Virus record (IMG/VR): IMGVR_UViG_3300045988_175722
Coordinates: 40,206 to 104,205 of that record
Origin: a virus
Reading direction: 5' to 3' (one strand)
DNA length: 64,000 nt
Below, piece after piece: positions 4,341-42,844 of this stretch. The position numbers and the translations under genes are program-made. Position 1 is the first letter of the stretch. Each line of letters begins with the position of its first letter. The notes below the pieces were generated by a model. That model was not told where the DNA came from. It searched no databases and saw nothing but the letters and a program-made list of their open reading frames with translations.

Positions 4341-4805
4341 ATGAAGATAAATATGAATCATGTAAAGGAGAAGATAGCAGGCATTATCTTTGACCTTATC
4401 ATAGAATCGGGCAGTAAGTCTAAATTCTTCCGTAAGTACACCAACCATCGCTTCCGTAAGCAGTACGAACGATTGAAGGATGATTCCTATTTTCATCAGT
4501 ATAAACGCAACAACGCTTTAGAAAAAGCAAATAGTAAGCTGCATGAAAGGATCAGCGCTTTAAATTACAGACTTCACTCTATTTATGATGCGGTGAAAGT
4601 CGTAGCTACGGAGTACCCTAAGAACATCCCGTGCCCTCACGGAGAAAAAGATGAAGAAAACGATTGCCCCGTCAGAACAGATTCCACTGAATGCTGGTGC
4701 TGCCCAGGTTTCGTATGTAGAATACCTGAAAAAGGTACCATTATCTGTTGGAACGAGAACTTTGAACAGAGTGAGGATTTAGAAAATAAAGAAAAAGAAG
4801 AGTAA
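4341..4805 (+). CDS. hypothetical protein, Cys-rich C-terminus
   Basis: 154-aa ORF with a C-terminal cysteine cluster CPHG...CPV...CWCCPGFVC. Confidence 0.5.
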   Translation: MKINMNHVKEKIAGIIFDLIIESGSKSKFFRKYTNHRFRKQYERLKDDSYFHQYKRNNALEKANSKLHERISALNYRLHSIYDAVKVVATEYPKNIPCPHGEKDEENDCPVRTDSTECWCCPGFVCRIPEKGTIICWNENFEQSEDLENKEKEE

Positions 4806-4838
4806 TAATCAGTAACAAAGAAATTAATAGAAAAAGAT

Positions 4839-5663
4839 ATGGCAAAGAATAACGATTATCTTGTAAAAGCAAAAGAGTACCTAGCCGCAATGAAGACTAT
4901 GTACAACCTAGAGCAGTTGGCAGATGGGGTCCGCCCTGATAAATACAAGTACATCTGTCAAAAGTATGGTATTGATGAGGGCGAAGCCATGAACATGTAC
5001 TCTGTTCTTCAGAAGATGAAGAAGGAGTATTACATGGTGAACTATAAGGACTCGGCAGCCTTGGAGCGCGTCCTGTCTATCGCTGAGGAAGCCTATGTTA
5101 CCTACAAGCATGATCGTGTTGATTTTTATGTAGAGCTACACTCCCCTGAAACAAGATACAAGTATATTCTTGTAAGTTTCCACAAACCAGGCGAAAAGTT
5201 GGTTCAACAGGAATTCAATATAACAGACCCGAAAACCTTTCCGGCTGTTACCGACATGATGAATAACGGCTTCGAGATTGTCGGAATGTCACGACAGGCA
5301 GACGAGATAGAAAGTACAAAGTACGATGGAGTCGATGACAATAGAAGGATTTACATCCCTATCTATGATGGCGACGTGCTCCTCTGCTACTTAGAGAATC
5401 CTGACAGTATTTTCTCTCATCATAAAGAATGTGGTCTCTATCTCTGCCATGCTGGTGTTTATCATCGCCTCGTCTATACTCCTGGCAAGGGGTACGTAAG
5501 ACATCATGAGCCAGATGAGGATGAAGATTTCGAGTTGGATATTAGCGAAGAGCCTTTCAGCCAGTACGTCTTGACATTATCTAAGAGATTTCGTAAGTTG
5601 GGTAATATTCATTCCGGCATCGGGTTCCTCATGGAAGAAGATAACAAGAAAGAAGAGAAATAG
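4839..5663 (+). CDS. hypothetical protein
   Basis: 274-aa ORF with no motif recognised. Confidence 0.55.
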   Translation: MAKNNDYLVKAKEYLAAMKTMYNLEQLADGVRPDKYKYICQKYGIDEGEAMNMYSVLQKMKKEYYMVNYKDSAALERVLSIAEEAYVTYKHDRVDFYVELHSPETRYKYILVSFHKPGEKLVQQEFNITDPKTFPAVTDMMNNGFEIVGMSRQADEIESTKYDGVDDNRRIYIPIYDGDVLLCYLENPDSIFSHHKECGLYLCHAGVYHRLVYTPGKGYVRHHEPDEDEDFELDISEEPFSQYVLTLSKRFRKLGNIHSGIGFLMEEDNKKEEK

Positions 5664-5666
5664 CCT

Positions 5667-6008
5667 ATGACAAAGCAAGAGTTGTTATCTAGCCCTGCCT
5701 TTCAGACGGCGGGGGATGATGCTATTATCTATCTCGTAGCATGGTTCGATGGTGGTCCATGGATAAGATATGTTACAGCTCCTAAGAAAGAGGATCAAAC
5801 TAGAGATTGCATTCGTTTCCGCTCATTTGAACCGCTGATTAGCAAGATACGTCTGTTGACAAATCTTTCTTTTCTCCATTCAAGGGGAGGTAAAGTTTTG
5901 ACCTTCCAGTATCCAAATGGCTGGCATAAAACGGGAGAATGCAGCGTTGATATTGACTCAGACGAAAATATCGTAATTAGAGAAAAAAATAAAAGAAGAA
6001 GATTATGA
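5667..6008 (+). CDS. hypothetical protein
   Basis: 113-aa ORF whose stop overlaps the next start. Confidence 0.5.
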   Translation: MTKQELLSSPAFQTAGDDAIIYLVAWFDGGPWIRYVTAPKKEDQTRDCIRFRSFEPLISKIRLLTNLSFLHSRGGKVLTFQYPNGWHKTGECSVDIDSDENIVIREKNKRRRL

Positions 6009-6712
6009 AAAGTAAATTAAAGTATTACACCCAGGTTATAGGTGTTAATTTGTTGGCGGCATTGGTACCGATCCTTGCCGTTATCCTTATCTATGGTCTC
6101 GGCAAGCTGAAGAATATCTATACACACCCTTGCGTTTTATCGCAGGAGATATACGATTGCTGCCTAGAGGCAACCATTGTAGTATTGGCTGGGTTCTCCG
6201 TAGGTCTCTTGTTTGTCGGTTGGGCTGATAAGTGGCGAAAGACAAAACTCAGTGTTCTAAAAATCAAAAGAGAGCGTGAGGAAGAAAAAAGAGCTGCCAA
6301 AATCTGTCTTGCTATGGGAGTAGATCCTACTATAGATAGAGTAGAGCCTGAAGTGAATACGGCAGAGCAGGAGAATGCGCCTGTACCTGGTGATTCCGAG
6401 TTCGAGGATATTTCCGGATTGACAGTTAAGGAGATTTGGGAACTCTATAAGGGGCGTGAGATAGATCTTTTAGGTGGTAATGTTTTTATTGCTGGTTACG
6501 ACGAGGCGCCTAACTTCGTTGTTGTCGGCACTAAATTAGCTCAACCTAGTATAAGTTATGACGAGATGGTAGAAAGGATGGCTAGTAAAGACCCCGATAA
6601 GTGGCATGTAGAAAAAGGCTATGCGGATTACGGAACACTTTCTACCGAATACGTCCACGTTTACAAAAAAGAAGCAATAATTAGATGCAGAAGCTTATGG
6701 CAGCACGCCTAA
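6005..6712 (+). CDS. membrane protein
   Basis: 235 aa with two hydrophobic segments near the N-terminus. Confidence 0.5.
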   Translation: MKSKLKYYTQVIGVNLLAALVPILAVILIYGLGKLKNIYTHPCVLSQEIYDCCLEATIVVLAGFSVGLLFVGWADKWRKTKLSVLKIKREREEEKRAAKICLAMGVDPTIDRVEPEVNTAEQENAPVPGDSEFEDISGLTVKEIWELYKGREIDLLGGNVFIAGYDEAPNFVVVGTKLAQPSISYDEMVERMASKDPDKWHVEKGYADYGTLSTEYVHVYKKEAIIRCRSLWQHA

Positions 6713-7029
6713 GTGATTACAAGACGTATTACGCCAATCTTTATTATACAAACCCATCGGCATGTGAAGGTAAGGCATTCTTTATGCGTCCTATCCCGGA
6801 ACACATGAAGCAGTTCTTACCTGTTGCCGATGCGGATGCAGCTATAGCGCAAGCTCTATCTTTTGCGAAAGCTCATCCCGATTTCTGCATGAAAAGGTTA
6901 TGTGTAGTAACGTCTTTCTATACAAAGAAAGACAATTATAATTACCGTACAGATTACCAGTGGTACAGATGGGATAAAACTTTGCATAATTTTGAGCGAG
7001 ACGAATATCAGAAAGATGTGCATTGGTAA
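6685..7029 (+). CDS. hypothetical protein
   Basis: 114-aa ORF. Confidence 0.45.
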   Translation: MQKLMAARLSDYKTYYANLYYTNPSACEGKAFFMRPIPEHMKQFLPVADADAAIAQALSFAKAHPDFCMKRLCVVTSFYTKKDNYNYRTDYQWYRWDKTLHNFERDEYQKDVHW

Positions 7030-7057
7030 TATAGAAAGAATAATAAAAAGAATTGTT

Positions 7058-7675
7058 ATGAAGAAGAATTATTTGTTTGATGTTGGCGGCTTGCTACAGG
7101 TGCTGCAAGCCATCCAGGAGGGAAAGCCCGTGGAGTATCGTCCATTAGAGGAACCTAATTGGCGAGAGTTCAACCCAGAGGATTGCGGTATTGATACTGA
7201 GAACTGTAAATATCGCGTTAAGCCTTGCGAGTATGGAGACAGCTCGGGTATAGAACCTATCCGTCCGGAAGATTTAGAGGAAGACAGAATCTATCTTTTG
7301 AGAAGCCGAGATTACGGTAATGATAAGGGATTTCTTTGCGTAAAAAGTAATATGTGGAAATGGAATAAGTTAATGTCTTTGCATTTTTCTTATATTATTG
7401 AGAATGACAGTAGCGCTGTGTTGAGTATATGCGATCCTAATACCTGGAAATGTAGTCATAGCGAGTACTCGGAAAGTTTTGCCAACAGCATTTCCTCTAA
7501 TCTCGCAGTTTGTAACTTTGATGATGTAGTGTGCTATGAGCCATCTTTAGCACAAGTTCAGATGCTGGAGTCTAAGCTGCGCGAAATAGGTTATGAGCTC
7601 AAAAACGGAGAAATGATAAAGATAGATGAAAACGAAGAACAAACAACAAGGCATGAATGCAGAACAGCAAAATGA
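7058..7675 (+). CDS. hypothetical protein
   Basis: The track ORF is 6992..7675. The first ATG after the upstream stop is at 7058 (MKKNYLFD). Confidence 0.5.
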   Translation: MKKNYLFDVGGLLQVLQAIQEGKPVEYRPLEEPNWREFNPEDCGIDTENCKYRVKPCEYGDSSGIEPIRPEDLEEDRIYLLRSRDYGNDKGFLCVKSNMWKWNKLMSLHFSYIIENDSSAVLSICDPNTWKCSHSEYSESFANSISSNLAVCNFDDVVCYEPSLAQVQMLESKLREIGYELKNGEMIKIDENEEQTTRHECRTAK

Positions 7676-13383: not shown

Positions 13384-14154
13384 TTAAAATAGGCTAGGCT
13401 GCGCCATTTCGAGCTGAATACGCTTGCAAGCCTTGTCGTAATATTCTTTGTTCAGCTCAAAGCCGATGAAGTTCCTCTTTTCTCTGATGCAGGCGATTGC
13501 GGTAGTTCCGCTGCCCATGCAATTATCGAGAACGCACCCCCCCACATTAGTATAAGTACATATAAGATACTGGATAAGAGCTACTGGCTTTTGCGTAGGG
13601 TGGAAGGTATCGGCAGAATGTTCTTTATCAAAGCAGATAATGCTCTTTGGGAATTTTTCATCTGATACGATAGTAGGCACTTCTTTATGGTCTCCATAAC
13701 AGCCTCGCTTCAAACTATGCGAGCCATCTCCCCTTCGATGATTCCTTTGATGTGGCGCACATTTTACCATTTGAGGATTGTAGACAGGTTGTTTTCGATA
13801 AAATACAGCAATATCCTCATGTGAGCGCAGAGGCATCTTGTTGGCATTCAGAAAGCCTGTTACCCGTTGTTTGCTCCAAATAAGATTATATTTCCAGAGT
13901 TTCGGCTGCGACATCATAAGTTGTGCGGTAAACATACCTTGGCAGAAAAGGATAATGGCTGCATTGGGTTTGGTTATGCGCAGATATTCCTTCCATAATG
14001 GCTCAAGCGGGATAATGCTATCCCAGCCACCGCCCTCACTCTTTTTATTGAGAACGCCATACGGCAAATCGCAGATAATGCAATCCACGCTTGCGTCCGG
14101 AATCTTTTTCATTCCTACCAGGCAATCCTCATTATAAATCTTATTTAATTCCAT
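13384..14154 (-). CDS. DNA methyltransferase, N6-adenine/N4-cytosine class
   Basis: Motifs DLPYG (DPPY-type) and FHPTQKPVALIQYLI...VLDNCMGSGTT (AdoMet binding). A coding-strand G7 tract at 13537-13543 is in frame. Confidence 0.85.
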   Translation of the reverse strand: MELNKIYNEDCLVGMKKIPDASVDCIICDLPYGVLNKKSEGGGWDSIIPLEPLWKEYLRITKPNAAIILFCQGMFTAQLMMSQPKLWKYNLIWSKQRVTGFLNANKMPLRSHEDIAVFYRKQPVYNPQMVKCAPHQRNHRRGDGSHSLKRGCYGDHKEVPTIVSDEKFPKSIICFDKEHSADTFHPTQKPVALIQYLICTYTNVGGCVLDNCMGSGTTAIACIREKRNFIGFELNKEYYDKACKRIQLEMAQPSLF

Positions 14155-14174: not shown

Positions 14175-14772
14175 TCAATTAAACCATTTTAGAATAGTTT
14201 CTCCTTTATATCCTTTTTCCCAGATAAACCAGGCATAGGCTTGAGCGCTACCAGCCATTGCATCGAAATCGCCATTGGCAGCACATTTCAGTCGTGAACT
14301 GCTTACCCATACTCTGCATGGAGGCTGTGTTCTAAACAGATGCCTTCTTCCTTTCCCTTCAAGAAAAGTAAGTTTTAGAAACATAGCAACCTTTCTTCCT
14401 TTCGGAATAATCTGCAAAGCCTTTTCCACGAACTCTAACGCAAATCGGTATGGTGGATTGGTAACAATATCTCCATTCCATTCTATGTTGTCGATGGAAA
14501 GAAAATCTGCAACATCACCATAACCTCTATCTATCAAGTCACGGCTGACTACATCGTAGCCATGAGCCTTTAACACTTTGCTAATATGTCCTTCGCCGCA
14601 GGAAGGTTCCAAAATTACCCCCCCCCGTAAAATGCTCTATCTTACAGAGCCATTCGGTAGCTGCGGGTTCTGTGGCATAGTAGTCTTCTTTTTGGCGCTC
14701 ACCATTTTTGTGATTGCTAGCGCCCAAAGTCTTAAACACGGCAGCCTTGCCGCCTACCCAGTCTTTTGCCAT
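14175..14772 (-). CDS. N6-adenine DNA methyltransferase, interrupted by a frameshift at a G9 tract
   Basis: Track ORFs 14581..14772 (…YYATEPAATEWL…EHFTGGG) and 14175..14612 (EPSCGEGHI…TNPPY) are two halves of one MTase. They join as TGGVILEPSCGEG if the tract at 14618-14626 had 8 rather than 9 nt. Confidence 0.75.
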
Positions 14773-14805
14773 AAAGTCTATAAACTATTAACTATAAATT
14801 ATTAA

Positions 14806-25161: not shown

Positions 25162-26280
25162 ATGTTTGAGGAGATATGTTCCGTCTATCGGGATGCGAAG
25201 GATGCACTCGGAAGATATGTCGATATGGAGACGGGCGAGTGCATCACGCAGATGTCTATCCGTGAGTTCTGCCTGACGGACAGATGGAAGCCGTATGTAG
25301 AGAAGCTGAGAGCCATGAGGCAACAGTATGGCAGTGCAGCTAAGAAGATGCCGGAATACGTAGATACCAAGAAGATGCTTCCTGGTGCCACGCTGAGCGG
25401 TCTCTTCGCTACCTACGAGGACAATAGTCTTACTCATCCAGGCCAGCGGGTGATGGTTTCCCGAAGAGAAAGCCACCTTCAACGGCATACAGGATGGTTG
25501 GCAATAGATATTGACCTGCAAGACAACCAAGGTATAGCCGATTTCGAGAATATCCGCAGGGTATTGGCATTTCGCCCCGAGGTAGCCCTGCTGATGCGTT
25601 CCTGTTCCGGAACGGGATTGTTCGGATTGGTTCGCTTGGCTTACCCTGACCATCACAAAGAGCAGTTCAAGGCATTACTGCAGGAGTATGCTGCCCTGGG
25701 CATTATGCTTGATGGCTCTTGTGGAAATATCGGTCGTGTGCGCTTCGCCTCATGGGATGATCCGCAGCATATATATATTAATGAACGTGCGATACCATAC
25801 ACCAGACTACCCGATAATGTGCCTACGCCGATGCCCGTGATGCAGTATGGCAACACGTTTTTCAGTGGCAGCCATCCGACAGGTGCCCGCTTTGGCGGAA
25901 ACTATTCGCATGGTGGATATAGGTGTGACACTCCCGAGATCACCTATCACAAAGCGCTGCGCCTTGTTGAGAAGATAGAGGCACAAGGCATTGATATTTG
26001 CGCAGGCAAGGATGCTAATAGTGGCTATCTGGGTTGGGTGAAATGCGGCATGTCGCTCTATCACGTGGATCGCGTGGCAGGCTATGACCTGTGGCGAAGA
26101 GTTTCCCGCTTCCGTCCTGCTGATTCCACCTGCGGCCACAACGAGATGGATTTTCGCAAGCGATGGAATCAGTTTGCTAATTACAACAAAATCTCTGAGG
26201 CAACTTTCTTCGACTACTGCAAGCGGTCGGGCATCATCCTCACCAAGGAAGACTGGAAAGAGATATACCAGAATACATAA
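25162..26280 (+). CDS. primase / replication-initiation-like protein
   Basis: 372 aa. WLAIDIDL…MRSCSGTGLFGLVRL…GRVRFASWD resembles the BT4734/VirE N-terminal primase-type domain, judged by eye. Confidence 0.5.
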   Translation: MFEEICSVYRDAKDALGRYVDMETGECITQMSIREFCLTDRWKPYVEKLRAMRQQYGSAAKKMPEYVDTKKMLPGATLSGLFATYEDNSLTHPGQRVMVSRRESHLQRHTGWLAIDIDLQDNQGIADFENIRRVLAFRPEVALLMRSCSGTGLFGLVRLAYPDHHKEQFKALLQEYAALGIMLDGSCGNIGRVRFASWDDPQHIYINERAIPYTRLPDNVPTPMPVMQYGNTFFSGSHPTGARFGGNYSHGGYRCDTPEITYHKALRLVEKIEAQGIDICAGKDANSGYLGWVKCGMSLYHVDRVAGYDLWRRVSRFRPADSTCGHNEMDFRKRWNQFANYNKISEATFFDYCKRSGIILTKEDWKEIYQNT

Positions 26281-26285
26281 AAAGC

Positions 26286-26315
26286 GCCCCGTCCCCAGCG
26301 ATTCTATCGCCGGTC
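26286..26315 (+). repeat. gene-boundary hairpin element copy 4
   Basis: The loop is TCT and the right arm is ATCGCCGG. It lies 6 nt after the stop at 26280. Confidence 0.8.
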
Positions 26316-26357
26316 CACAAGCAAAAAAGTTTTTAATACATTTAAAGATTATAGATT

Positions 26358-26644
26358 ATGGCAAAAAGAAAAGTAGAAATCCCTAAAGGGTCATGGCTTG
26401 ACCAGAAAGGTCAACGTTGGGTAAAAGTAGTGTTCGATGTAATGTCCGGATTCGGGGGGGCAAAAAGTTCCTTCGTCAAATCACAATGACGTTCCCGGCA
26501 AATCTCGATATGGCTTTAGGCAAATACTTAATAGATATGGGCGATATGGATGATTTCAGAGACAGAATAAATCATCAATACCCATCATTGGAACACCTTA
26601 AAAATCTCACCTTTATCCCTACGGGAGACAAGGTTTTGAGATAG
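26358..26644 (+). CDS. hypothetical protein, split by a frameshift at a G7 tract
   Basis: The ATG at 26358 reads MAKRKVEIPKGSW…MSGFGG up to the tract at 26454-26460. With 8 G it continues as GKKFLRQITMTF… in the frame of track ORF 26417..26644. Confidence 0.4.
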
Positions 26645-26801
26645 TAAAAGTAAATGACAGGTAGCTTCGGCTAAATTCATGGAACAGCCATTGGGCAATC
26701 ACTGAATATCCATTGAACATTCACTGAATATTCAGTGGTTGCCCCGTGATAGTTCTATTACGTGGATTTTATATATAGCATATTTTACAAAATAAAAAGA
26801 T

Positions 26802-27411
26802 ATGAAACAGAAGATTATCGCAATTATGGGTCCATCTGGAGCAGGCAAGGACACGGTGGCAAATATCCTTTCCGTCGCCCTGAACATTCCCTTGCTTTGT
26901 TCCTTCACCACCCGTCCCATGAGGGATGGCGAGGTAAATGGCAAGGAGCATTTTTTCGTGAGGGAGTGTAAGACTCCCAAGGAGGATATGCTTGCCTACA
27001 CCGAATATGGTGGCTACGAGTATTGGACGGAACTCGCCCAGGTAAAAGATACAGCCATCTATGTGATTGACGAAAGAGGATTTTCTGGGCATCTGCGAGC
27101 ATTTTCCGGATATTGAACTGATGAGCATTTATGTGGCTGCCAAGCCCGAAACGCTGAAGGCTCGCGGTATTGCTCCTGAAAGAACCAACCGTGATGAATA
27201 TCGTGTATCGCTGGATATTAACTCCTTCGATTACGTTATCAGCAATAATTCGTCACTCTATCGTTTGCTGACCACTACGCTGAATGTAAAAAAGTGCATT
27301 CAAGCTGCCAACGAAGAAACGTCGAAGTATGAAGCAGAGGTGGAAGAGAGACTGAAAAAAGGAGGATTGGTAGCAAAAAACTTAATCCGCATTCTCAGCT
27401 CCTTCCTTTAA
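26802..27411 (+). CDS. guanylate/dNMP kinase-like protein, frameshifted
   Basis: P-loop GPSGAGKDT and TTRPMRDGEVNGKEHFF are present. The frame changes near 27075-27085 (A3/T4 runs) and continues as FLGICEHFPDIELMSIYVAAKPETLKARG. Confidence 0.6.
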
Positions 27412-35981: not shown

Positions 35982-37088
35982 ATGGAAGCAAAGATAAACC
36001 TCACCATCCCGAAAAGCTGGAATCAATGCACCCCCACCCAGCTAGAGCAGATTGCCCTCATCATGCTAGAGCAGATAGAGAAATCCAAGGTAGACCGCTA
36101 TCACCCCTTCGATATGCAGAAGGTGAAGATAGCTGTCTTCTTTCTCTTTGCCGGGATAAGCATCAACGCCTATCCCGACCCTCGCCAGCCTATCAATGAG
36201 CAGCACTACCTGGTAAGCATAGAGCCGCAGAAGAAGAGCCTCCTAAAGAAGCTCTTCTCCCTCTGCGCCTCCGTTCCCAGCGATTCCATCGCTGGTCCCC
36301 AGTCTTGCAGCCACTTCCCTCTCTATCTTTGGCAGCTCAACTATTGGCTTTCCCCGAAAGCCAAAACCAACGATAAAACCTCCCCCGAGTATATCTCCCA
36401 AGGCGCAGGTCTCCTCGATTGGCTGGATGCGGATAGCGGCAATTTTCTCACCCTTTTTCCCTATCCATCCATCAAGCAGAAATCCAAGTGGTACCATCGC
36501 AGCAAAGCCTTCCAGGGTCCGCACCCAGACCTCGATGGTTTCTCCTGGCAGCAGTACCGCTTCGCCAGCGATATGATGCAAACCTACACCAAGTTAAACA
36601 ATAACCTGGTTAAGATGAAGAAGATGGATAAATTCACCGAGGCGCAGTTGCATCAGCAAGCCGAGAGTGTGCGTAGTGCAAAAAGCATGTTCTTAGCCGT
36701 CATCTTTAACACCACTACGAATTACATCGACTCTACCACTGGCATAAAGAAATACGATTTCCACTATGAGGCAAAACAGCTCACTGCCCATGCCAAGTAT
36801 TTCGTCGATTTCTCCGAAGCCCAGTGGCAAGTAGTTTTATTCTGGTGGACGGGCATCATGCACACCCTGGCTCATCGCTACCCTCATGTGTTCAAGGTGC
36901 AGAAGGTAAACAACAGTAAGCCACAAACTCCGATGGAAATCTACACCGCTACCACCGCCACGATGCAGAAGTATGCCGGCTTAACAGAAGATCAGATCAA
37001 CACCCAATCCTATTCCTTGGTTCTAGAACACTTAGAAAGGTTATCGAAAGAGAATGAGGAAATGGAAAAGATGAGGAGAAGCAAATGA
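35982..37088 (+). CDS. hypothetical protein carrying an in-frame hairpin element
   Basis: 368-aa ORF. Element copy 9 at 36266-36297 is translated as CASVPSDSIAGPQ. Confidence 0.5.
   Translation: MEAKINLTIPKSWNQCTPTQLEQIALIMLEQIEKSKVDRYHPFDMQKVKIAVFFLFAGISINAYPDPRQPINEQHYLVSIEPQKKSLLKKLFSLCASVPSDSIAGPQSCSHFPLYLWQLNYWLSPKAKTNDKTSPEYISQGAGLLDWLDADSGNFLTLFPYPSIKQKSKWYHRSKAFQGPHPDLDGFSWQQYRFASDMMQTYTKLNNNLVKMKKMDKFTEAQLHQQAESVRSAKSMFLAVIFNTTTNYIDSTTGIKKYDFHYEAKQLTAHAKYFVDFSEAQWQVVLFWWTGIMHTLAHRYPHVFKVQKVNNSKPQTPMEIYTATTATMQKYAGLTEDQINTQSYSLVLEHLERLSKENEEMEKMRRSK
36266..36297 (+). repeat. gene-boundary hairpin element copy 9 (inside an ORF)
   Basis: GCCTCCGTTCCCAGCGATTCCATCGCTGGTCC lies within 35982..37088. 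Confidence 0.8.
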
Positions 37089-37231
37089 TAAAGATAGATT
37101 ATCATTTTCCGAATACGGGGGGGGTATTCACTCAATGTACAAAGGATTTCAATAATGGCCCCTTATGGAATTTGAGCCGTTGCGTCAAGGCAAGCGTTCT
37201 CGATACAGGCGTAATGCTAGAATATGAATAA
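37085..37231 (+). CDS. C5-MTase TRD-like mini-ORF 0a
   Basis: MIKIDYHFPNTGGVFTQCTKDFNNGPLWNLSRCVKASVLDTGVMLEYE. The ATG overlaps the upstream stop (ATGA). The G8 tract at 37117-37124 is in frame. Confidence 0.45.
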   Translation: MIKIDYHFPNTGGVFTQCTKDFNNGPLWNLSRCVKASVLDTGVMLEYE

Positions 37232-37352
37232 CCATCGCTTTTACCAATACCCACGAGGCGAGAATATGGGCGGTATTCTAGATACATCACTCTGCCTTAC
37301 CATCACTATTAATTCGTAGGAACAGAATGTGTTTCTAATAGAGGAATTATAA
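37224..37352 (+). pseudogene. TRD-like mini-ORF 0b with an in-frame TAG
   Basis: MNNHRFYQYPRGENMGGILDTSLCLTITINS, then TAG at 37317, then EQNVFLIEEL. The TAG sits where other cassettes carry the G tract. Confidence 0.3.
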
Positions 37353-37358
37353 AGATTT

Positions 37359-37667
37359 ATGAGTTATAGTACATTAAAAATAGAGAAGAATAAATTCAGA
37401 GAACACTCTGTATTTTTATCCCGTTCAACCGTAAGTGATACGGTTGTAATCAAGTGTGGTTCAGAAAGCGTGTGTCTTGAGCAAGACGAATTTAAAGCGC
37501 TGGCACATCTCATGTGCTATGATTTCTATACACGAGGTATGATCGAGAAAGCTCAAGAACATAGCCGGAATGATGTTCGTCCATACGATATATATTCTAC
37601 TACCGATATAGAAGGTTACGACGAGAAGATTAATTGGGATTTGGATGTAGAAAATAACAACAAATAG
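37359..37667 (+). CDS. hypothetical protein
   Basis: 102-aa ORF. Past its TAG the same frame reads HFQRTREFIEYD then stop, which is the cassette-type tail. Confidence 0.4.
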   Translation: MSYSTLKIEKNKFREHSVFLSRSTVSDTVVIKCGSESVCLEQDEFKALAHLMCYDFYTRGMIEKAQEHSRNDVRPYDIYSTTDIEGYDEKINWDLDVENNNK

Positions 37668-37727
37668 CATTTCCAAAGAACAAGAGAATTCATTGAGTAT
37701 GATTAAAGATTTATAGAGCAAAACAAA

Positions 37728-39029
37728 ATGATAACAAAATTCAATTTTAAGGATAAGACCATCAAGTCTTATGCCATCCGAAAGCTGACACCTTTCGAGT
37801 GTTTCCGACTGATGGGTGTTCGTGATAATGTGATACAAACCATGCAGAGCACCAATGCCCAGGCAGCCGAACGCATCGCCAACTACAAGGGCAAGGGCAA
37901 ACCTGAAGATATGGCAGTATCAGCCAGTCAGCAATACAAGCAGGCGGGTAACTCCATCGTGGTAGATGTGCTTGCAGCCATCTATCAGCAACTCTGGTAC
38001 CAGAAAGAACCAAAGCGTGAGGCACAGACCTCCCTCTTTGCCGATTTCTTCCCAGAAGACCAACTCCCTACCTATCCGGTAGATAAGAACGATGATGAGA
38101 AACTTATTCTTACCACCTTCTCCGGTTACGACTCGCAGTTGATGGCAGCCGATGTGCTCGCCCAGCAGCATCCTGATTTCCGCTGGACGTGCGTAGGCTG
38201 GAGCGATATAGATAAGTATGCCTGTCAGATGCACGACCTTATCTTTCCGCAGTTTTCCGACAAAGCCTTGGGCGATATAACCAAAATCGACTGGCAACAG
38301 GTAAAATCTAATACGGGGGGGCAAGAAATTGACCTCTTTACCTATTCTTCACCTTGTCAGGATATATCGCAAGCCGGCAAGCAGATGGGTCTGAAGGAAG
38401 GTTCCGATACCCGCTCTGCATTATTGTGGCGAGTAGTCGATGCCGTAGAGGTATTGCGGCCTAAATACCTGCTCCAAGAGAACGTAGCAGCCCTGGTAAG
38501 CAAGAAGTTTATGCCCGATTTTCAGAAGTGGCTTGATAAGCTCTCTTCTCTTGGCTACGTAAGCCGATGGGCACGCCTCAATGCCAAAGACTATGGTGTT
38601 CCGCAGAACCGCGACCGAGTTTTCTGCCTCTCAATGAGAAAAGATGTAGCCTTCGATTACCAGTTTCCCGACCCTATTCCGCTGAAGAGAAAGTTGGAAG
38701 ATGTGTTGCAGGAAGAAGTAGATACAAGGTTCTTCTTGAAAGATGAATCCGTCAGCAAGTTCCTCCAGGCAAACGATAAAGACACCTGTGTCTTCCATCA
38801 GTTTGAGATAGAGCCGAGCCACGAGAATGCCATGGCATTGAAAGCCATCCTTACCCTTTTCGTAGAGCAGTATGATTGCTGGAACCGCAAGCCTAAGAGA
38901 ATGCAGGAGCTACTTGTTTCTTCTCACGAGGATATTATCATGCCATTATTCAATGATTGGAAAGAGAACGGCAAGTTCCAAAATCCAAAGTTAGATAGTT
39001 TGTACCATCAGTTTTTGGAGAAGAAATGA
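37728..39029 (+). CDS. DNA (cytosine-5) methyltransferase core, circularly permuted (IX-X-I…VIII), with no TRD
   Basis: AIRKLTPFECFRLMG (IX) and QAGNSIVV (X) lie at the N-terminus. They are followed by FSGYDS (I), SPCQDIS (IV), QENV (VI) and QNRDRVF (VIII). The G7 tract at 38315-38321 is in frame. Confidence 0.85.
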   Translation: MITKFNFKDKTIKSYAIRKLTPFECFRLMGVRDNVIQTMQSTNAQAAERIANYKGKGKPEDMAVSASQQYKQAGNSIVVDVLAAIYQQLWYQKEPKREAQTSLFADFFPEDQLPTYPVDKNDDEKLILTTFSGYDSQLMAADVLAQQHPDFRWTCVGWSDIDKYACQMHDLIFPQFSDKALGDITKIDWQQVKSNTGGQEIDLFTYSSPCQDISQAGKQMGLKEGSDTRSALLWRVVDAVEVLRPKYLLQENVAALVSKKFMPDFQKWLDKLSSLGYVSRWARLNAKDYGVPQNRDRVFCLSMRKDVAFDYQFPDPIPLKRKLEDVLQEEVDTRFFLKDESVSKFLQANDKDTCVFHQFEIEPSHENAMALKAILTLFVEQYDCWNRKPKRMQELLVSSHEDIIMPLFNDWKENGKFQNPKLDSLYHQFLEKK

Positions 39030-39215
39030 TTTGCAGTTTAACCCATGTTGCGAAGCCTTCGCCTATGATTAGGGGGGGGGTATCAGCAGGTAGTAAACGT
39101 AACAGACGGAGAAAGCGCAGCCACCTTAACAACTCGCTATGAGTCGATAGGTCCTACCAACATTTTAACGCTTGCGCATTACCCTATGACAGTAGTGTTA
39201 TATGAATACGAATAA
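39026..39215 (+). CDS. TRD mini-ORF C1 (out of frame as sequenced)
   Basis: MICSLTHVAKPSPMIRGG, then a G9 tract at 39072-39080, then YQQVVNVTDGESAATLTTRYESIGPTNILTLAHYPMTVVLYEYE. It needs 8 G. As sequenced it stops at 39142. Confidence 0.45.
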
Positions 39216-39353
39216 TACGATAGACAAAATAGGCAACATTTACTTTAATGAATGGAAGCCCGGTTTTGATGGTAATATCTGTGGCGTGAAAGGTATATAC
39301 CCTACCATTACTCTATCCAACAATACGGGGGGGTACTGTTAGAGTATGCTTAA
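39202..39353 (+). CDS. TRD mini-ORF C2 (tail out of frame as sequenced)
   Basis: …IGNIYFNEWKPGFDGNICGVKGIYPTITLSNNTGG, then a G7 tract at 39327-39333, then VLLEYA. It needs 8 G. As sequenced it ends YC at 39342. Confidence 0.5.
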
Positions 39354-39513
39354 AAAGAACGCACGTCTGGAGCGTATGTATCAGCGCGGTTTCCGTCCAC
39401 ATCACGCCATGTGGATCGATACCTATAATAAGCAATATGGCAAAGATATTATCTATACTGTTTTAGCTGGTATCAGTAGTAGAAACCATTATTACGTAGC
39501 AGTAGAACTATGA
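39346..39513 (+). CDS. TRD mini-ORF C3 (intact, no tract)
   Basis: MLKKNARLERMYQRGFRPHHAMWIDTYNKQYGKDIIYTVLAGISSRNHYYVAVEL. The start lies inside the C2 tail and the stop overlaps the C4 ATG. Confidence 0.5.
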   Translation: MLKKNARLERMYQRGFRPHHAMWIDTYNKQYGKDIIYTVLAGISSRNHYYVAVEL

Positions 39514-39658
39514 ATAGTAATCGCCCGATCATCCTCGGCTCTTATAGCCCATCCCAAAACGGCATTATCGTTCACCCTAAAGGTATCGCCCTATGCCTTT
39601 GTGGGGGGGCAAAGGGCATGATGTAGATAAACCGAAAATATTATTAGAGTATGAATAA
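39510..39658 (+). CDS. TRD mini-ORF C4 (tail out of frame as sequenced)
   Basis: MNSNRPIILGSYSPSQNGIIVHPKGIALCLCGG, then a G7 tract at 39603-39609, then GKGHDVDKPKILLEYE. It needs 8 G. Confidence 0.5.
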
Positions 39659-39802
39659 GGTTATTCCTTTCGTAAAACGATTTAAGGAGCTATGCCCACG
39701 ATTAGATGGTTACTCTACAGCCTTGTCATCAAGGTACGATGGATGGGGGGGCTGTACGACAACCACGGGCAGCATACTATGTTATTGTTAGTATATGATT
39801 AA
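39651..39802 (+). CDS. TRD mini-ORF C5 (tail out of frame as sequenced)
   Basis: MNKVIPFVKRFKELCPRLDGYSTALSSRYDGWGG, then a G7 tract at 39745-39751, then LYDNHGQHTMLLLVYD. It needs 8 G. Confidence 0.45.
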
Positions 39803-39939
39803 ATTGATAACAATCAATACCCCCCCCCATAATCTGTGGTGCTATCACTGCTCATTATTTTAAGGATGGGGTATCGAATATCCTTCCAAATACAAACTCG
39901 CAGATAAAGGCTGCGGCAATATTAGCAGAGTATGAATAA
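39795..39939 (+). CDS. TRD mini-ORF C6 (out of frame as sequenced; C tract instead of G tract)
   Basis: MIKLITINTPP, then a C9 tract at 39820-39828, then IICGAITAHYFKDGVSNILPNTNSQIKAAAILAEYE. It needs 8 C. As sequenced it stops at 39833. Confidence 0.4.
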
Positions 39940-40033
39940 GGTTATAATAGATAAAGGTAGCATTCCTCCTTCTGAAGAGAAAGAGGATGATTCTAATGAT
40001 ATGCCGCCATTCGTATTGATAGAATATGATTAA
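39932..40033 (+). CDS. mini-ORF C7 (short, acidic, cassette-type ends)
   Basis: MNKVIIDKGSIPPSEEKEDDSNDMPPFVLIEYD. It shares the 19-nt junction AGAGTATGAATAAGGTTAT with the C4/C5 boundary. Confidence 0.4.
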   Translation: MNKVIIDKGSIPPSEEKEDDSNDMPPFVLIEYD

Positions 40034-40202
40034 GATATTAGCCATTCACGAGGCAAGAACAGAGCACGCCAAGGAAGTACGCAAGCAGACTGGTACCAAC
40101 GATTATCGGGATAAAGCCGTCTTCTTCCGTGATAGTCCTTTGATGCAGTGCATCGGTACTTTCTCCACAAAGGATAATCTTCTTGCCTTCAGATATGAAT
40201 AA
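40026..40202 (+). CDS. TRD mini-ORF C8 (intact)
   Basis: MIKILAIHEARTEHAKEVRKQTGTNDYRDKAVFFRDSPLMQCIGTFSTKDNLLAFRYE. Confidence 0.5.
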   Translation: MIKILAIHEARTEHAKEVRKQTGTNDYRDKAVFFRDSPLMQCIGTFSTKDNLLAFRYE

Positions 40203-40211
40203 AGAAAAGTT

Positions 40212-40376
40212 ATGAACGAAATACATCCGATAGTAGTAGGCTTGCTGAATACGCCTCCCTTTGACAAGCGCTTCGCCCAGATAAGGCGAGTGTTCGCTAT
40301 CCAAGGTCTAGCGCCTACTTGCGATACTTGTGGGGGGGGCGGTACTCAGCCCAAGATACTGGTGGAGTATGATTAG
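40212..40376 (+). CDS. TRD mini-ORF C9 (intact, G8 in frame)
   Basis: MNEIHPIVVGLLNTPPFDKRFAQIRRVFAIQGLAPTCDTCGGGGTQPKILVEYD. The G8 tract is at 40332-40339. Confidence 0.5.
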   Translation: MNEIHPIVVGLLNTPPFDKRFAQIRRVFAIQGLAPTCDTCGGGGTQPKILVEYD

Positions 40377-40551
40377 GCAAGCCATCATTACCCACTATCG
40401 AACCGAAGAAGCGAAGGCATATCGCAAGATACACGGCGACAGAGGCGGTTGCCGTTATCAGGATAAGTATCATCGCCCAAGTCCCTACCCCTGGAGTAAC
40501 TGCATTTCCACCGTAACAAAAGATAATCTTTTATGGCAACAATACGAATAA
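40369..40551 (+). CDS. TRD mini-ORF C10 (intact)
   Basis: MIRQAIITHYRTEEAKAYRKIHGDRGGCRYQDKYHRPSPYPWSNCISTVTKDNLLWQQYE. This is the frame of track ORF 40330..40551. Confidence 0.5.
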   Translation: MIRQAIITHYRTEEAKAYRKIHGDRGGCRYQDKYHRPSPYPWSNCISTVTKDNLLWQQYE

Positions 40552-40691
40552 GAACCTGCGCAAGCAGAGGCAGAGCCGATGGTGATTGGTACTACAACCC
40601 TCACTCCCAAAGGTTAGAAATTGGGGGAAGCATCAGTAATGCCATCTCCTCCATCGCTAAGGATTTTATGATTATCATTGAACACCGCTAG
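40533..40691 (+). CDS. TRD mini-ORF C11 (intact)
   Basis: MATIRIRTCASRGRADGDWYYNPHSQRLEIGGSISNAISSIAKDFMIIIEHR. It ends inside repeat IR-A. Confidence 0.45.
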   Translation: MATIRIRTCASRGRADGDWYYNPHSQRLEIGGSISNAISSIAKDFMIIIEHR

Positions 40692-40878
40692 GCGCTCGGC
40701 GGATTTGAAATCCGCCGTTAAAAAATGTCCTAACCTTTTTAGGCTCTGCGGATTTGAAATCCGCAGCAAGCAAGATTGTATCAAAGAATAGGGGGATTAC
40801 AGATCCCCCAGTTTAATAGGTCGAACCTTTTTTGACGGTGGATTTCAAATCCGCCGGAACGCCTAACGGAAGACTTTG
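40685..40878. repeat. composite palindrome-cluster repeat IR-A
   Basis: Contains GGCGGATTTGAAATCCGCC (40698), CTGCGGATTTGAAATCCGCAG (40746), GGGGGATTACAGATCCCCC (40791) and GGTGGATTTCAAATCCGCC (40837). Its reverse complement aligns along its length with 50501-50695. Confidence 0.8.
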
Positions 40879-41002: not shown

Positions 41003-42844
41003 ATGGCAAGCAAAAACAAAAACAGAGTAACCAACTTGCAGCAGTTCCAAAATCGTAGTGAGGAACTGAAAGATGCAGGCTACGTAGCCGTTCGCCCAGA
41101 TGCCTTTACGTCGCCAAAGAACGGCGGCAATAAGGTCTTTTCCTGGAACGGCTACGTTCACAGCATGCTCCTAACCACAGCCGGTATGTCGGCAAGCGGT
41201 GGCGATGCAAGCGGTTCTGCAGCACGTCAGCAAGTCTCAACTATCTTTGCATCGAGTGGCGGCGAGAACCTGGGCAAACCGAAAGGCGTAGGTACCGAAG
41301 GCTTAGGCTTTATGGAATGGGGTATGGCAAACCGACTGCCAAACCTTATCTGGATGCTCTCTCGCATGTCGCCTTTCACCGCAGCAGGAGTAGATTACAT
41401 CAAGAAAATATTGGTAGGTCGCGGTCCCGCAGCCAAGTATCACTACACCCAGTACGTAGGCGGTAACATCACAGAAAAATATATCCCCTACGAGAGTGCC
41501 GGAGTTTTGCTCCGTGGGCAGATAGCCGACCTGAAAGCCCAGGAAGAGGCAGCCGCCGAAGCCAAGCGCCAAAGAGAAGAGCAGCAGAACCGAAACAACC
41601 AGCAGAACCCCAATGAGCAATCTCAGCAGTCAGAGCCACCGTTCCATGCGATTCCATCGCAGGTCTCCTCATCCCCCGAAGAAGAGGAAAGCGAGGAGAT
41701 GAAATCCCTAAAAGAAGCTCTCCAAAAATGGGAAGAAACCAATGCCCAGCTTCGTGATTTCCTAGAAAACAACGACCTGATGCAGACCTTCCTCGACCTG
41801 GCAGGCGATATGGCTTTGATGTCACAATGCTTTGTAGAACTTCAGCTCAACCAGCGTTCCCTCGACGAGAGCGGCAAAGCCGTTCCCACCGCTCAATGGA
41901 CTCCGAAGGTGATCGGCCTAAAGCACCGTAGTATCTTCACCACTCGCCTGGAGCGCATGGATGAGAACTACCGCATCAACTATGCCTACGTGAGCAATCA
42001 ATGGCTCGACCCTACCCAATACGTCGGCGTACAGAAAGAGGAAGACCGCAAGATAGCTGCTATTCCTTATCTCCCTACCACATCGGCAGTAAAGGATTTG
42101 CAGCGCAATATCCGTGAGGCACGTCAGAAGCAGGTAAGCCGCAAGAAACGCCCTACCCGCTTCATTATGTCGCCAAGAGATTTTGGCGGTCCCTATTATG
42201 CCGATGCCCTTTGGCATTCAATCTTTGCCGGTAGCATTTTTGAGTATGCCTTTACTATCGTGGATGACCGCCTTACCCGAAAGCGCAACAGCAATATCAT
42301 CGGTAGAGTTATCTATATCCATCAGGACTACATCAATAAGCTCTATCAGCAGCAGGGCGAACAGAAGAAGAAAACCATCGGTGAGATTCAGATCGAAATC
42401 TTCACCTCTATCAATACCTGGCTCGCCAATCCCGATAATGCAGGTCAGGCGCTCATCTCCTCTGCCTTCACGGGCAGCGACGGAAAGGAGCACAAGGCTT
42501 GGGAAATCGTGGAAATCGAAACCAAGGCAAACGATCAGGCAAATGCCGATAAAACCGAGTTGCAGGAAATAAGCAGCATTATCTTCTTTGCCATGGGTCT
42601 TGATGCAAAGCTCATCGGTAATACTCCTGGCGATACGGCATCATCGGGCGGTACCGACCTGAGAGAACGTTTCCTAGTCAAGCAAATCCAGTTTGCTCCA
42701 TTGCAGCAATTAATGATACGTCCTCTGGAAGTTTTGAGCCGTTTTAACGATTGGGATGAGCACCTGGTATGGCAGATAGATCGAGAGGTATTGACCACCC
42801 TCGACAACTCAAAAACCGGAGTTGCAAAGCAGGGGCAGGAATAG
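41003..42844 (+). CDS. portal-like virion protein (tentative)
   Basis: 613 aa. FMEWGMANRLPNLIWMLSRMSPFTAAGVDYIKKILVGRG recalls N-terminal portal motifs of Bacteroidota phages, from memory only. It has an acidic/Gln-rich insert carrying degenerate hairpin element copy 10. Confidence 0.4.
   Translation: MASKNKNRVTNLQQFQNRSEELKDAGYVAVRPDAFTSPKNGGNKVFSWNGYVHSMLLTTAGMSASGGDASGSAARQQVSTIFASSGGENLGKPKGVGTEGLGFMEWGMANRLPNLIWMLSRMSPFTAAGVDYIKKILVGRGPAAKYHYTQYVGGNITEKYIPYESAGVLLRGQIADLKAQEEAAAEAKRQREEQQNRNNQQNPNEQSQQSEPPFHAIPSQVSSSPEEEESEEMKSLKEALQKWEETNAQLRDFLENNDLMQTFLDLAGDMALMSQCFVELQLNQRSLDESGKAVPTAQWTPKVIGLKHRSIFTTRLERMDENYRINYAYVSNQWLDPTQYVGVQKEEDRKIAAIPYLPTTSAVKDLQRNIREARQKQVSRKKRPTRFIMSPRDFGGPYYADALWHSIFAGSIFEYAFTIVDDRLTRKRNSNIIGRVIYIHQDYINKLYQQQGEQKKKTIGEIQIEIFTSINTWLANPDNAGQALISSAFTGSDGKEHKAWEIVEIETKANDQANADKTELQEISSIIFFAMGLDAKLIGNTPGDTASSGGTDLRERFLVKQIQFAPLQQLMIRPLEVLSRFNDWDEHLVWQIDREVLTTLDNSKTGVAKQGQE
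41636..41667 (+). repeat. gene-boundary hairpin element copy 10 (degenerate, inside an ORF)
   Basis: CCACCGTTCCATGCGATTCCATCGCAGGTC. An A-T to T-A swap keeps the stem paired. Confidence 0.6.

Follow-up and report, generated by a model that had tools for sequence, protein, structure and literature searches.

Layout of the Locus

The subject of this analysis is a 3.6-kb locus (37085–40691) in a viral stretch of 64,000 nucleotides, referred to below as the window, which corresponds to positions 40,206 to 104,205 of the IMG/VR record IMGVR_UViG_3300045988_175722. A 433-amino-acid (aa) open reading frame (ORF), here called the core, carries the conserved motifs of the C5-cytosine DNA methyltransferases (PF00145) and is flanked by 13 mini-ORFs of 33–62 codons, here called cassettes; eleven of these (C0 to C10) tile positions 39026–40691 downstream of the core, and two (A and B) tile positions 37085–37352 upstream of it (Table 1). 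The core is permuted and has no target-recognition domain (TRD), the TRD mini-genes are under purifying selection, and the homopolymer tracts within them are hypermutable among relatives. From the sequence, this is probably a split multispecific C5 methyltransferase of a gut phage in which the TRDs would be separately translated, individually phase-variable subunits.

The core matches PF00145 in two separate stretches, and its motifs, as read from the sequence, come in the order IX (AIRKLTPFECFRLMG, aa 16–30, also read as RKLTPFECFRLMG), X (QAGNSIVV), I (FSGYDS), IV (SPCQDIS), VI (ENV), and VIII (QNRDRVF, aa 293–299), which is a circular permutation. As in the permuted class typified by M.BssHII, motifs IX and X are N-terminal to motifs I–VIII, and the sequence is permuted at a point within the variable region. 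When the core was de-permuted with C3 or C9 inserted, the Pfam match became a single stretch covering positions 23–322 of 324. The protein begins with a beta-hairpin (ITKFNF-KDKT-IKSYAIRKL) ahead of motif IX and ends shortly past motif VIII, where the usual RFFLKDESVSKFLQ segment is followed by a strand, VFHQFEIEP, and then by a helical tail of ~80 aa. The counterpart of VFHQFEIEP in conventional enzymes is the '...GFRFEP' strand, which comes before their first TRD.

The polypeptide lacks a TRD of its own between motifs VIII and IX, and a comparison of the core with the cassette peptides and with the cassette-family and TRD profiles revealed no similarity anywhere in it. Since a length of 431–442 aa is kept across more than 100 clusters of homologues, the stop at 39029 is genuine. 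Both the permuted motif order and the termination of the core ahead of a TRD had been proposed in a preliminary description of this DNA, and both hold. The terminal TGA is overlapped by the ATG of C0 (ATGA), and neither a slippery site nor a G tract is seen at the 3' end of the core. Among the relatives compared, none has one ordinary, uninterrupted enzyme; only in one rare cluster, P0091, is the C-terminus of the core fused to a single cassette, which is of the C3 type, apparently via deletion and recombination, and this fusion displays the expected topology.

Nonsense codons occur in three of 80 related cores (L009, TGA at a Trp codon; L056, TAG; L069, TAG at a Gln codon). They stand at conserved positions in cores located at 6001–7300 or, in L069, from 1437 onwards, and either mark dead alleles or hint that some relatives recode stop codons.

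The cassettes follow one another in a characteristic manner. Of the 12 copies of the sequence TATGA[AT]TA[AG] in the 64-kb window, 10 fall within the locus (P ~2e-11); the usual junction (TATGAnTAA) is an 8-nucleotide (nt) stop/start overlap in which one cassette ends in ...E-Y-E/D-stop with the next ATG embedded. The preliminary description had drawn attention to this junction and to the tiling of the two intervals by eleven and two mini-ORFs, and on both points it was right. It had, though, taken all of the mini-ORFs as continuous, whereas five of the eleven are split at homopolymers and B has a TAG; the hyphenated peptides that it quoted (GG-VLLEYA, GGG-KGHDV...) are spliced across frameshifts.

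Upstream of the core, the ATG of cassette A overlaps the stop of the preceding ORF (35982–37088), again through ATGA. The position of the TAG in cassette B is TGG in orthologues; recoding of this TAG was considered and rejected, given the TGG of the orthologues and the large phage ORFs that are intact under the standard code. Neither Pfam nor PHROGs has a family that covers the cassettes, the 102-aa ORF between B and the core, or the upstream 368-aa ORF. Similar non-TRD ORFs, again with no family match, are also interspersed in the array of a contig from another phage lineage, L081 (at 4365–4856 and 5688–6059); across the lineages, these inserts are 102–163 aa long.

Table 1. Features of the locus, with cassette sequences in part, state of the homopolymer tract in this genome, and match of each cassette to in-line TRD modules in a panel of 21 multispecific methyltransferases.
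Feature	Positions	Strand	Sequence	Tract and state	In-line TRD match
Cassette A, 48 aa	37085..37231	+	MIKIDYHFPNTGGVF...VMLEYE	G8 tract 37117-37124 in frame, ON	E 2e-3; weak; P0244 and P0302
Cassette B, 42 codons	37224..37352	+	orthologues, ...TITINSWEQNVFLI...	Inactivated by TAG at 37317-37319	
ORF of 102 aa inside array, not TRD-like	37359..37667	+		No Pfam or PHROG match	
Cassette-end remnant and 5-codon stub	37668..37716	+	HFQRTREFIEYD-stop (REFIEYD-stop, 37668-37706); MIKDL-stop	Embedded ATG	
Permuted C5 methyltransferase core without TRD	37728..39029	+		PF00145, E 1.7e-50	
Cassette C0	39026..39215	+	...YQQVVNVTDGESAATLTTRYESIGPTNILTLAHYPMTVVLYEYE	G9 tract 39072-39080, OFF; G8 restores	E 3e-6; P0270
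Cassette C1	39202..39353	+	...GIYPTITLSNNTGG/VLLEYA	G7 tract 39327-39333, OFF; G8 restores	E 7e-3; weak for 21-protein panel
Cassette C2, 55 aa	39346..39513	+	...WIDTYNKQYGKDIIYTVLAGISSRNHYYVAVEL	Intact, tract-free	E 1e-3; weak for 21-protein panel
Cassette C3	39510..39658	+	...ILGSYSPSQNGIIVHPKGIALCLCGG/GKGHDVDKPKILLEYE	G7 tract 39603-39609, OFF; G8 restores	E 3e-3; weak for 21-protein panel
Cassette C4	39651..39802	+	...STALSSRYDGWGG/LYDNHGQHTMLLLVYD	G7 tract 39745-39751, OFF; G8 restores	
Cassette C5	39795..39939	+	MIKLITINTPP/IICGAITAHYFKDGVSN...AILAEYE	C9 tract 39820-39828, OFF; C8 restores	E 4e-4; P0244
Cassette C6, 33 aa, acidic	39932..40033	+	MNKVII...FVLIEYD	Terminal strand-like ends only	
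Cassette C7, 58 aa	40026..40202	+	...ARTEHAKEVRK...STKDNLLAFRYE	Intact	E 8e-14; third TRD module of 612-aa P0169
Cassette C8, 54 aa	40212..40376	+	...GLAPTCDTCGGGGTQPKILVEYD	G8 tract 40332-40339 in frame, ON	E 1.7e-8; P0302
Cassette C9, 60 aa	40369..40551	+	...HYRTEEAKAYRKIHGD...SNCISTVTKDNLLWQQYE	Intact	E 1.5e-8; 21-enzyme panel
Cassette C10, 52 aa	40533..40691	+	...ASRGRADGDWYYNPHSQRLEIGGSISNAISSIAKDFMIIIEHR	Intact; orthologue tract interrupted here (GGGGGAAG)	E 1e-8; P0274

Homopolymer Tracts in the Cassettes

Runs of at least seven G or C bases number 11 in the window, and eight of them lie inside the locus (P ~1e-8). Such a run, 7–9 bases long, is held by seven of the 13 cassettes, all seven of which are in frame at a length of eight. 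In five of the eleven downstream cassettes, the run splits the coding sequence into two frames (C0 with G9; C1, C3, and C4 with G7; C5 with C9); together with B, which is broken by its TAG, this makes six of 13 cassettes off or broken in this genome, and the predicted in-frame set consists of A, C2, C6, C7, C8, C9, and C10. For every OFF cassette in the window, a change of ±1 base brings back a complete ORF with the junction motif at its end, and there is no secondary damage. The ON or OFF state was called from the end motif and from chain-walking rather than from the longest ORF, because wrong frames can run on. At G7, for example, the frame of C8 would run on into C9, and the product, of ~112 aa, would consist of half of C8 followed by the whole C9 TRD. 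C8–C9 run-ons of this kind are present in databases (P0161 and P0164), and some OFF states may create fusion proteins rather than simple truncations.

Among relatives, the lengths of orthologous cassette tracts range from 6 to 11 bases (C0 has G8 four times and G9 twice; C3 has G7 six times and G8 three times), whereas 22 of 23 relatives have the core's own in-frame tract (38315–38321) at G7. Both ON and OFF states are found among the orthologues of C0, C3, and C8, and tract length is unequal in 15 of 30 pairs of loci that have identical 200-nt flanks. The locus thereby shows a defining feature of phase-variable loci, namely a tract within the coding sequence with ON and OFF lengths in close relatives. 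The orthologues of C2 carry a tract of G7–9 at the ...KQFGGG position, and an interrupted tract, as in some orthologues and as in C10 and C2 here, would lock the cassette ON.

The codons that make up the tracts are also unusual for this phage. GGG accounts for 3.4% of the Gly codons in its long ORFs versus 17.8% in the cassettes, and GGG-GGG encodes none of the 58 Gly-Gly pairs in the long ORFs versus 22 of 223 in the cassettes. Since GGG is otherwise a rare Gly codon in the phage, the G runs appear to have been selected rather than to be accidental. The preliminary description had suggested a switchable specificity; the G and C tracts, which it did not report, give this suggestion a concrete basis, whereas the change of specificity itself is something that we still infer.

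Elsewhere in the window, two further methyltransferase genes have long runs, and together with those of the locus this places 10 of the 11 in genes for methylation. A PF01555 N6/N4 DNA methyltransferase gene (13384–14154, – strand; E 4e-31) has an in-frame G7 just before GSGTT, seen as a C7 run on the + strand at 13537–13543. A third methyltransferase gene (~14175–14780, – strand), with the motifs LEPSCGEG and NPPY, matches phrog_799 (E 9e-68) after frame correction; it is split by a G9 (C9 on the + strand, 14618–14626) and would be in frame with G8, which is the same ON length as in the cassettes.

In other lineages, a C8 tract lies in the core itself. In L054 and L066 it is found at +61 from the core start and encodes the Pro-Pro of motif IX (KLTPPE), and in L081 a C8 tract of the core, at position 1879, truncates the called gene; the whole enzyme may be phase-variable too in these lineages.

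Relationship of the Cassettes to TRDs

A full HMMER search of 1.84 billion representative proteins with a profile of the C7/C9 family, seeded from an alignment of the C9 family, produced 299 matches, mostly to mini-proteins but also to long PF00145 enzymes with two or three matching stretches; every match of a word-based search with C9 was 41–86 aa long. In the long PF00145 proteins, the profile matched at E 2e-19 to 1e-6, and the copies lie in tandem between motifs VIII and IX. These proteins include P0169 (612 aa; E 2e-19) and P0193 (587 aa). Enzymes of the P0169 type consist of motifs I–VIII, followed by up to ~7 modules that each end in ...(I/L/V)xEP, then by a hairpin and motifs IX–X, and the module ends correspond, ...LIVEP in the fused enzymes being the equivalent of ...LLEYE-stop in the cassettes.

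Scoring cassette by cassette against a small panel of 21 multispecific methyltransferases showed that 10 of the 13 window cassettes match in-line TRD modules, with all matches between motifs VIII and IX (Table 1 gives the individual values; by the overall tally, seven are at E 4e-4 or better). The proposal in the preliminary description that the cassettes are TRDs is supported for these ten, weakly so for A, C1, C2, and C3, whereas B, C4, and C6 remain unmatched. By the similarity of its cassettes to in-line TRDs, the locus has several independent TRD modules per core, as do the SPR/phi3T-type enzymes; the tandem TRDs in one polypeptide and the canonical I–X order of that type are not found here.

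A likeness to M.HhaI had also been proposed. In a phmmer comparison using the de-permuted construct of core plus C3, the cassette (ILGSYSPSQNGIIVHPKGIALCLCGGGKG) aligned with residues 227–257 of M.HhaI, which we take to be the segment with its two recognition loops. The likeness stands within this longer alignment but is not significant for a cassette profile alone. Since it is not independently significant, the identification of the cassettes as TRDs rests on the multispecific enzymes.

Conservation Among Relatives

The window has a G+C content of 46%, carries most of its long ORFs on the + strand, and also encodes a tape-measure protein, a head protease, and a portal-like protein, the only named relative of which infects a member of the Bacteroidota. 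The relatives in IMG/VR are contigs of ~95–110 kb from human-gut datasets. Against deposited phage genomes, the locus has no match at the nucleotide level, and the core protein has matches of less than 60% identity only.

All of the 80 loci retrieved from IMG/VR hold a homologue of the TRD-less core, and most of them have arrays that differ in cassette content. In total, 133 loci with the layout were confirmed in IMG/VR, along with several hundred clusters of mini-proteins, and the same layout is present in a 146-kb contig of another phage lineage. A comparison with related phage contigs, which the preliminary description had called for, shows that the layout is kept while the content and order of the cassettes differ strongly, even between close relatives; one cassette, P0157, is chimeric, with the head of C9 and the tail of C10. 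A chain-walking script applied to 81 loci recovered 378 cassettes, of which 296 are unique; they form ~12 families, and their median length is 54 aa; because the chain breaks early in many loci, the counts per locus are lower bounds. The C3-type family comprises 301 clusters, and the 120 listed span 46–95 aa, any given name being 'hypothetical protein'. Even C6 is conserved among relatives, as family 10.

The mini-ORFs retain their own ATG and stop across hundreds of contigs. Among 308 successive cassette pairs, the 8-nt overlap was found 175 times and a 4-nt overlap 43 times; the other spacings include overlaps of 19, 14, and 13 nt and gaps of 3 and 9 nt, with frame offsets of +1, +2, and 0. 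The cassettes are under frame-specific purifying selection: the ratio of nonsynonymous to synonymous substitution rates (dN/dS) is 0.10–0.19 in each of the ten largest families and, when pooled, 0.15 in the annotated frame versus 1.35 and 1.56 in the shifted frames. No Shine–Dalgarno sequence is evident upstream of the genes read at this locus, and translation initiation in the Bacteroidota is generally independent of such sequences. That an ATG is conserved at each stop speaks for re-initiation, by which neighbouring cassettes would be translationally coupled.

A Proposed Mechanism and Its Alternatives

How might a core without a TRD and a set of TRDs without a core function together? In the mechanism proposed here, the core gene would supply permuted catalysis while the TRDs would be cut into separate genes of ~50 codons, each with an ATG of its own that falls within the final codons of the gene before it, and each free TRD peptide would dock non-covalently on a core molecule. 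The C-terminal strand of the peptide (...ILLEYE, to be compared with ...LIVEP in the fused enzymes and GGYLVNG in M.HhaI) would pair with the N-terminal hairpin of the core, and the N-terminal strand of the peptide with VFHQFEIEP of the core, such that the small domain would be rebuilt; each in-frame peptide would then specify one methylated sequence. The tracts, which encode Gly-Gly or Pro-Pro, would slip during replication and cause reversible switching between the in-frame state (length 8) and out-of-frame states. If tract slippage toggles the cassettes in this manner, a phage population or lysate would therefore be a mixture of methylation patterns, and such a mixture could serve as a hedge against hosts with differing restriction systems and against methylation-dependent restriction. 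The chances seem about even that free peptides of ~50 aa, each a complete TRD, do exchange on the TRD-less core, with the gene of each gated by a hypermutable G8 tract; one phage genotype would then be able to generate up to 2^n methylome states. That the C5 methyltransferase fold allows non-covalent assembly is shown by the two-subunit enzymes M.AquI and M.EcoHK31I and by complementation between fragments divided in the variable region (PMC3404938, PMC5944983).

Several points weigh against this reading. Of the cassettes, B, C4, and C6 have no convincing TRD match in the 21-enzyme panel, and C6, at 33 aa, cannot be a complete TRD. Searches of the sequences in the PDB with profiles of the C9 family and the C3/C8 family gave no relevant solved structure. 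Structure prediction was of little help: an AlphaFold model of a C9–core fusion from a single sequence had a mean predicted local distance difference test (pLDDT) score of 37.5, and in an AF2 model of a C8–core fusion based on a 24-row core alignment, the mean was 52.9 with ~27 in the cassette part, the C-terminal helical tail of the core being the sole confident part. We infer from sequence that the peptides are produced, that they bind to the core, and that they confer methylation. A free peptide of ~50 aa would, moreover, have to replace two covalent connections, which is beyond any known split C5 methyltransferase. Since the stop in the OFF state lies 4 to ~70 nt from the next ATG, a simple coupling of termination to re-initiation cannot be uniform. 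As for the tracts, the inferred in-frame length is most often eight, and such tracts in the assemblies are G7 in 22 cases, G8 in 11, and G9 in six; that 11 of 39 are at the ON length fits switching but also fits a relaxed constraint on the ON state. Finally, the differences in tract length are all between assemblies, none being from one clonal population.

Four other explanations deserve consideration, each of which is disfavoured. One is that expression yields a single multi-TRD protein, the junctions and G tracts being crossed by programmed frameshifting, readthrough, or bypassing; the recoded product would then be an ordinary permuted multispecific methyltransferase. Slippage in transcription or translation can indeed be favoured by homopolymer runs; conventional enzymes carry the same modules in covalent linkage, some tract states give two-cassette run-ons (P0161 and P0164), and P0091 fuses the core to a cassette. 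This explanation is nevertheless unlikely, since the frame offset between neighbours is inconstant (+1, +2, or 0) and no single recoding signal could therefore join the cassettes; an ATG of their own at or just before the preceding stop is a signature of re-initiation rather than of readthrough, and the core ends in ATGA with neither a slippery site nor a G tract. Another possibility is that the cassettes form a silent donor library of the pilS type, from which recombination at the junctions would move one cassette at a time to an expression site fused to the core, with the free peptides having no role. The strong variability of cassette content and order among close relatives, chimeric cassettes such as P0157, and the apparent origin of the P0091 fusion would all be accounted for, and the dN/dS values are compatible with it, given that donors would show coding constraint too. 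Yet more than 100 clusters of cores end without a TRD as compared to the one rare fused cluster, so that the expression site would be normally empty; start codons and precisely overlapping stops are conserved though silent cassettes need neither, ON/OFF tracts would be purposeless in silent donors, and no recombinase is evident adjoining the locus. The donor library is accordingly judged to be quite improbable.

The two remaining explanations question the significance of what is seen. The differences between tracts might be errors of sequencing or assembly, with all cassettes constitutively in frame at G8 and the enzyme a fixed multi-subunit one; every tract in the window is within ±1 of a length of eight, and homopolymers are error-prone on some sequencing platforms, the platform being unstated for each assembly. 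Such errors, however, would not spare the tract in the core, the one that has to be in frame, while the cassette tracts span 6–11 bases, nor would they be expected to deviate in both directions and by up to +3 in a pattern that recurs in many independent assemblies; the building of the runs from an otherwise rare Gly codon points to selection for mutability, and an artefact is considered improbable. It could also be argued that the array is the decaying, functionless wreck of a once continuous multispecific methyltransferase gene, in view of the six out-of-frame or interrupted cassettes in this genome and the nonsense codons in three of 80 related cores. A wreck, though, would hardly show frame-specific purifying selection, start/stop overlaps that persist across 81 loci and also in a second lineage of phages, OFF cassettes that a single tract step would turn into full ORFs and that are otherwise undamaged, or an intact and conserved core, and decay is very improbable.

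Comparison with Known Systems

The split, phase-variable enzyme proposed here resembles several known systems. The multispecific C5 methyltransferases of Bacillus phages (M.SPRI, M.Phi3TI, M.Rho11sI, and M.H2I) likewise have one core and several TRDs of ~40–60 aa, and from the literature on SPR and phi3T, an anti-restriction role is to be expected of such phage-borne enzymes. The metagenomic multispecific enzymes P0169 and P0193 are built from the same module families as the window cassettes, with coinciding module boundaries; the shared families include RTEE..K..R...SNTI(S/T)TV.KDNL, G(I/L)(A/S)PT..T..GGG..PK(I/V), GR....QRLE....N..T.V.KD, and others. In all of these multispecific enzymes, however, the TRDs are in tandem in one polypeptide between motifs VIII and IX, in the canonical order, whereas here the core is permuted and the TRDs are separate genes on both of its sides, many of them with an ON/OFF tract.

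Permutation and splitting each have precedents. In M.BssHII, M.Alw26I, M2.Eco31I, M.Esp3I, and M2.BsaI, motifs IX–X precede I–VIII, with the permutation point in the variable region (PMC5944983). Permuted enzymes of the M.BssHII type keep their TRD in the same polypeptide; the core described here has none, and only P0091 resembles them. Activity from separate polypeptides is documented for M.AquI and M.EcoHK31I (alpha plus beta) and for fragments of M.BspRI, M.SssI, and M.HhaI (PMC3404938, PMC2836561). The break in the split enzymes is in or next to the variable region, as it is between the genes at this locus. M.AquI and M.EcoHK31I, though, have one fixed partner that contains conserved motifs (IX–X, or IX alone), while the small partners here have no catalytic motif, consist of a TRD only of ~50 aa, and are numerous, alternative, and individually switchable.

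In phasevarions (Type III mod or Type I hsdS/hsdM genes with simple-sequence repeats), tracts within the coding sequence likewise switch expression by frameshifting. Phages are also known to have poly-G contingency loci, as in the receptor-binding proteins of Fletchervirus and the contingency loci of T-even phages (PMC12633550). A polymorphism of tract length among near-identical genomes is common to the phase-variable systems and to this locus. In the cases known so far, what is switched in bacteria is an entire enzyme or a single specificity subunit and, in phages, a receptor-binding protein, whereas here up to seven independent switches would gate alternative specificity modules of one phage C5 methyltransferase. 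The ingredients (multispecific TRDs, permutation, split C5 methyltransferases, and poly-G contingency loci, including those of phages) are known singly; of their combination, free-standing TRD genes around a TRD-less core, each with its own switch, no description was found in the literature searched, which agrees with the preliminary description.

If the proposed mechanism is correct, this would be the first enzyme in nature to draw its DNA sequence specificity from a library of interchangeable mini-subunits, and the phage would practise a combinatorial, epigenetic bet-hedging against restriction and methyl-dependent restriction by means of a viral multi-switch contingency system that diversifies the virion methylome rather than a receptor-binding protein. 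If free TRDs work, the architecture would be a plug-in one, with one core and many recognition peptides of ~50 aa; TRDs would be shown to be autonomous, with no need of a covalent link to the core, which would bear on the question of how multispecific enzymes use several TRDs with one catalytic site and would offer a compact scaffold for the programmable writing of 5-methylcytosine. The layout is common in human-gut phage contigs. Because the mini-proteins are currently labelled hypothetical or are uncalled, the annotation of gut viromes and the prediction of restriction barriers between phages and hosts miss the system.

Neighbouring Features

Two further sites in the window may be mentioned. 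A G7 at 26454–26460 is the only long run outside a recognised methyltransferase gene; three short frames meet there, between the ORFs at 26084–26386 and 26769–27128, and the site could be another frameshift-prone gene. Four palindromic hairpins (GCGGATTTGAAATCCGC and variants), ~46 nt apart at 40694–40854, occupy the space that separates the last cassette from the portal-like gene at 41003, and these could be terminators or a protein-binding array.

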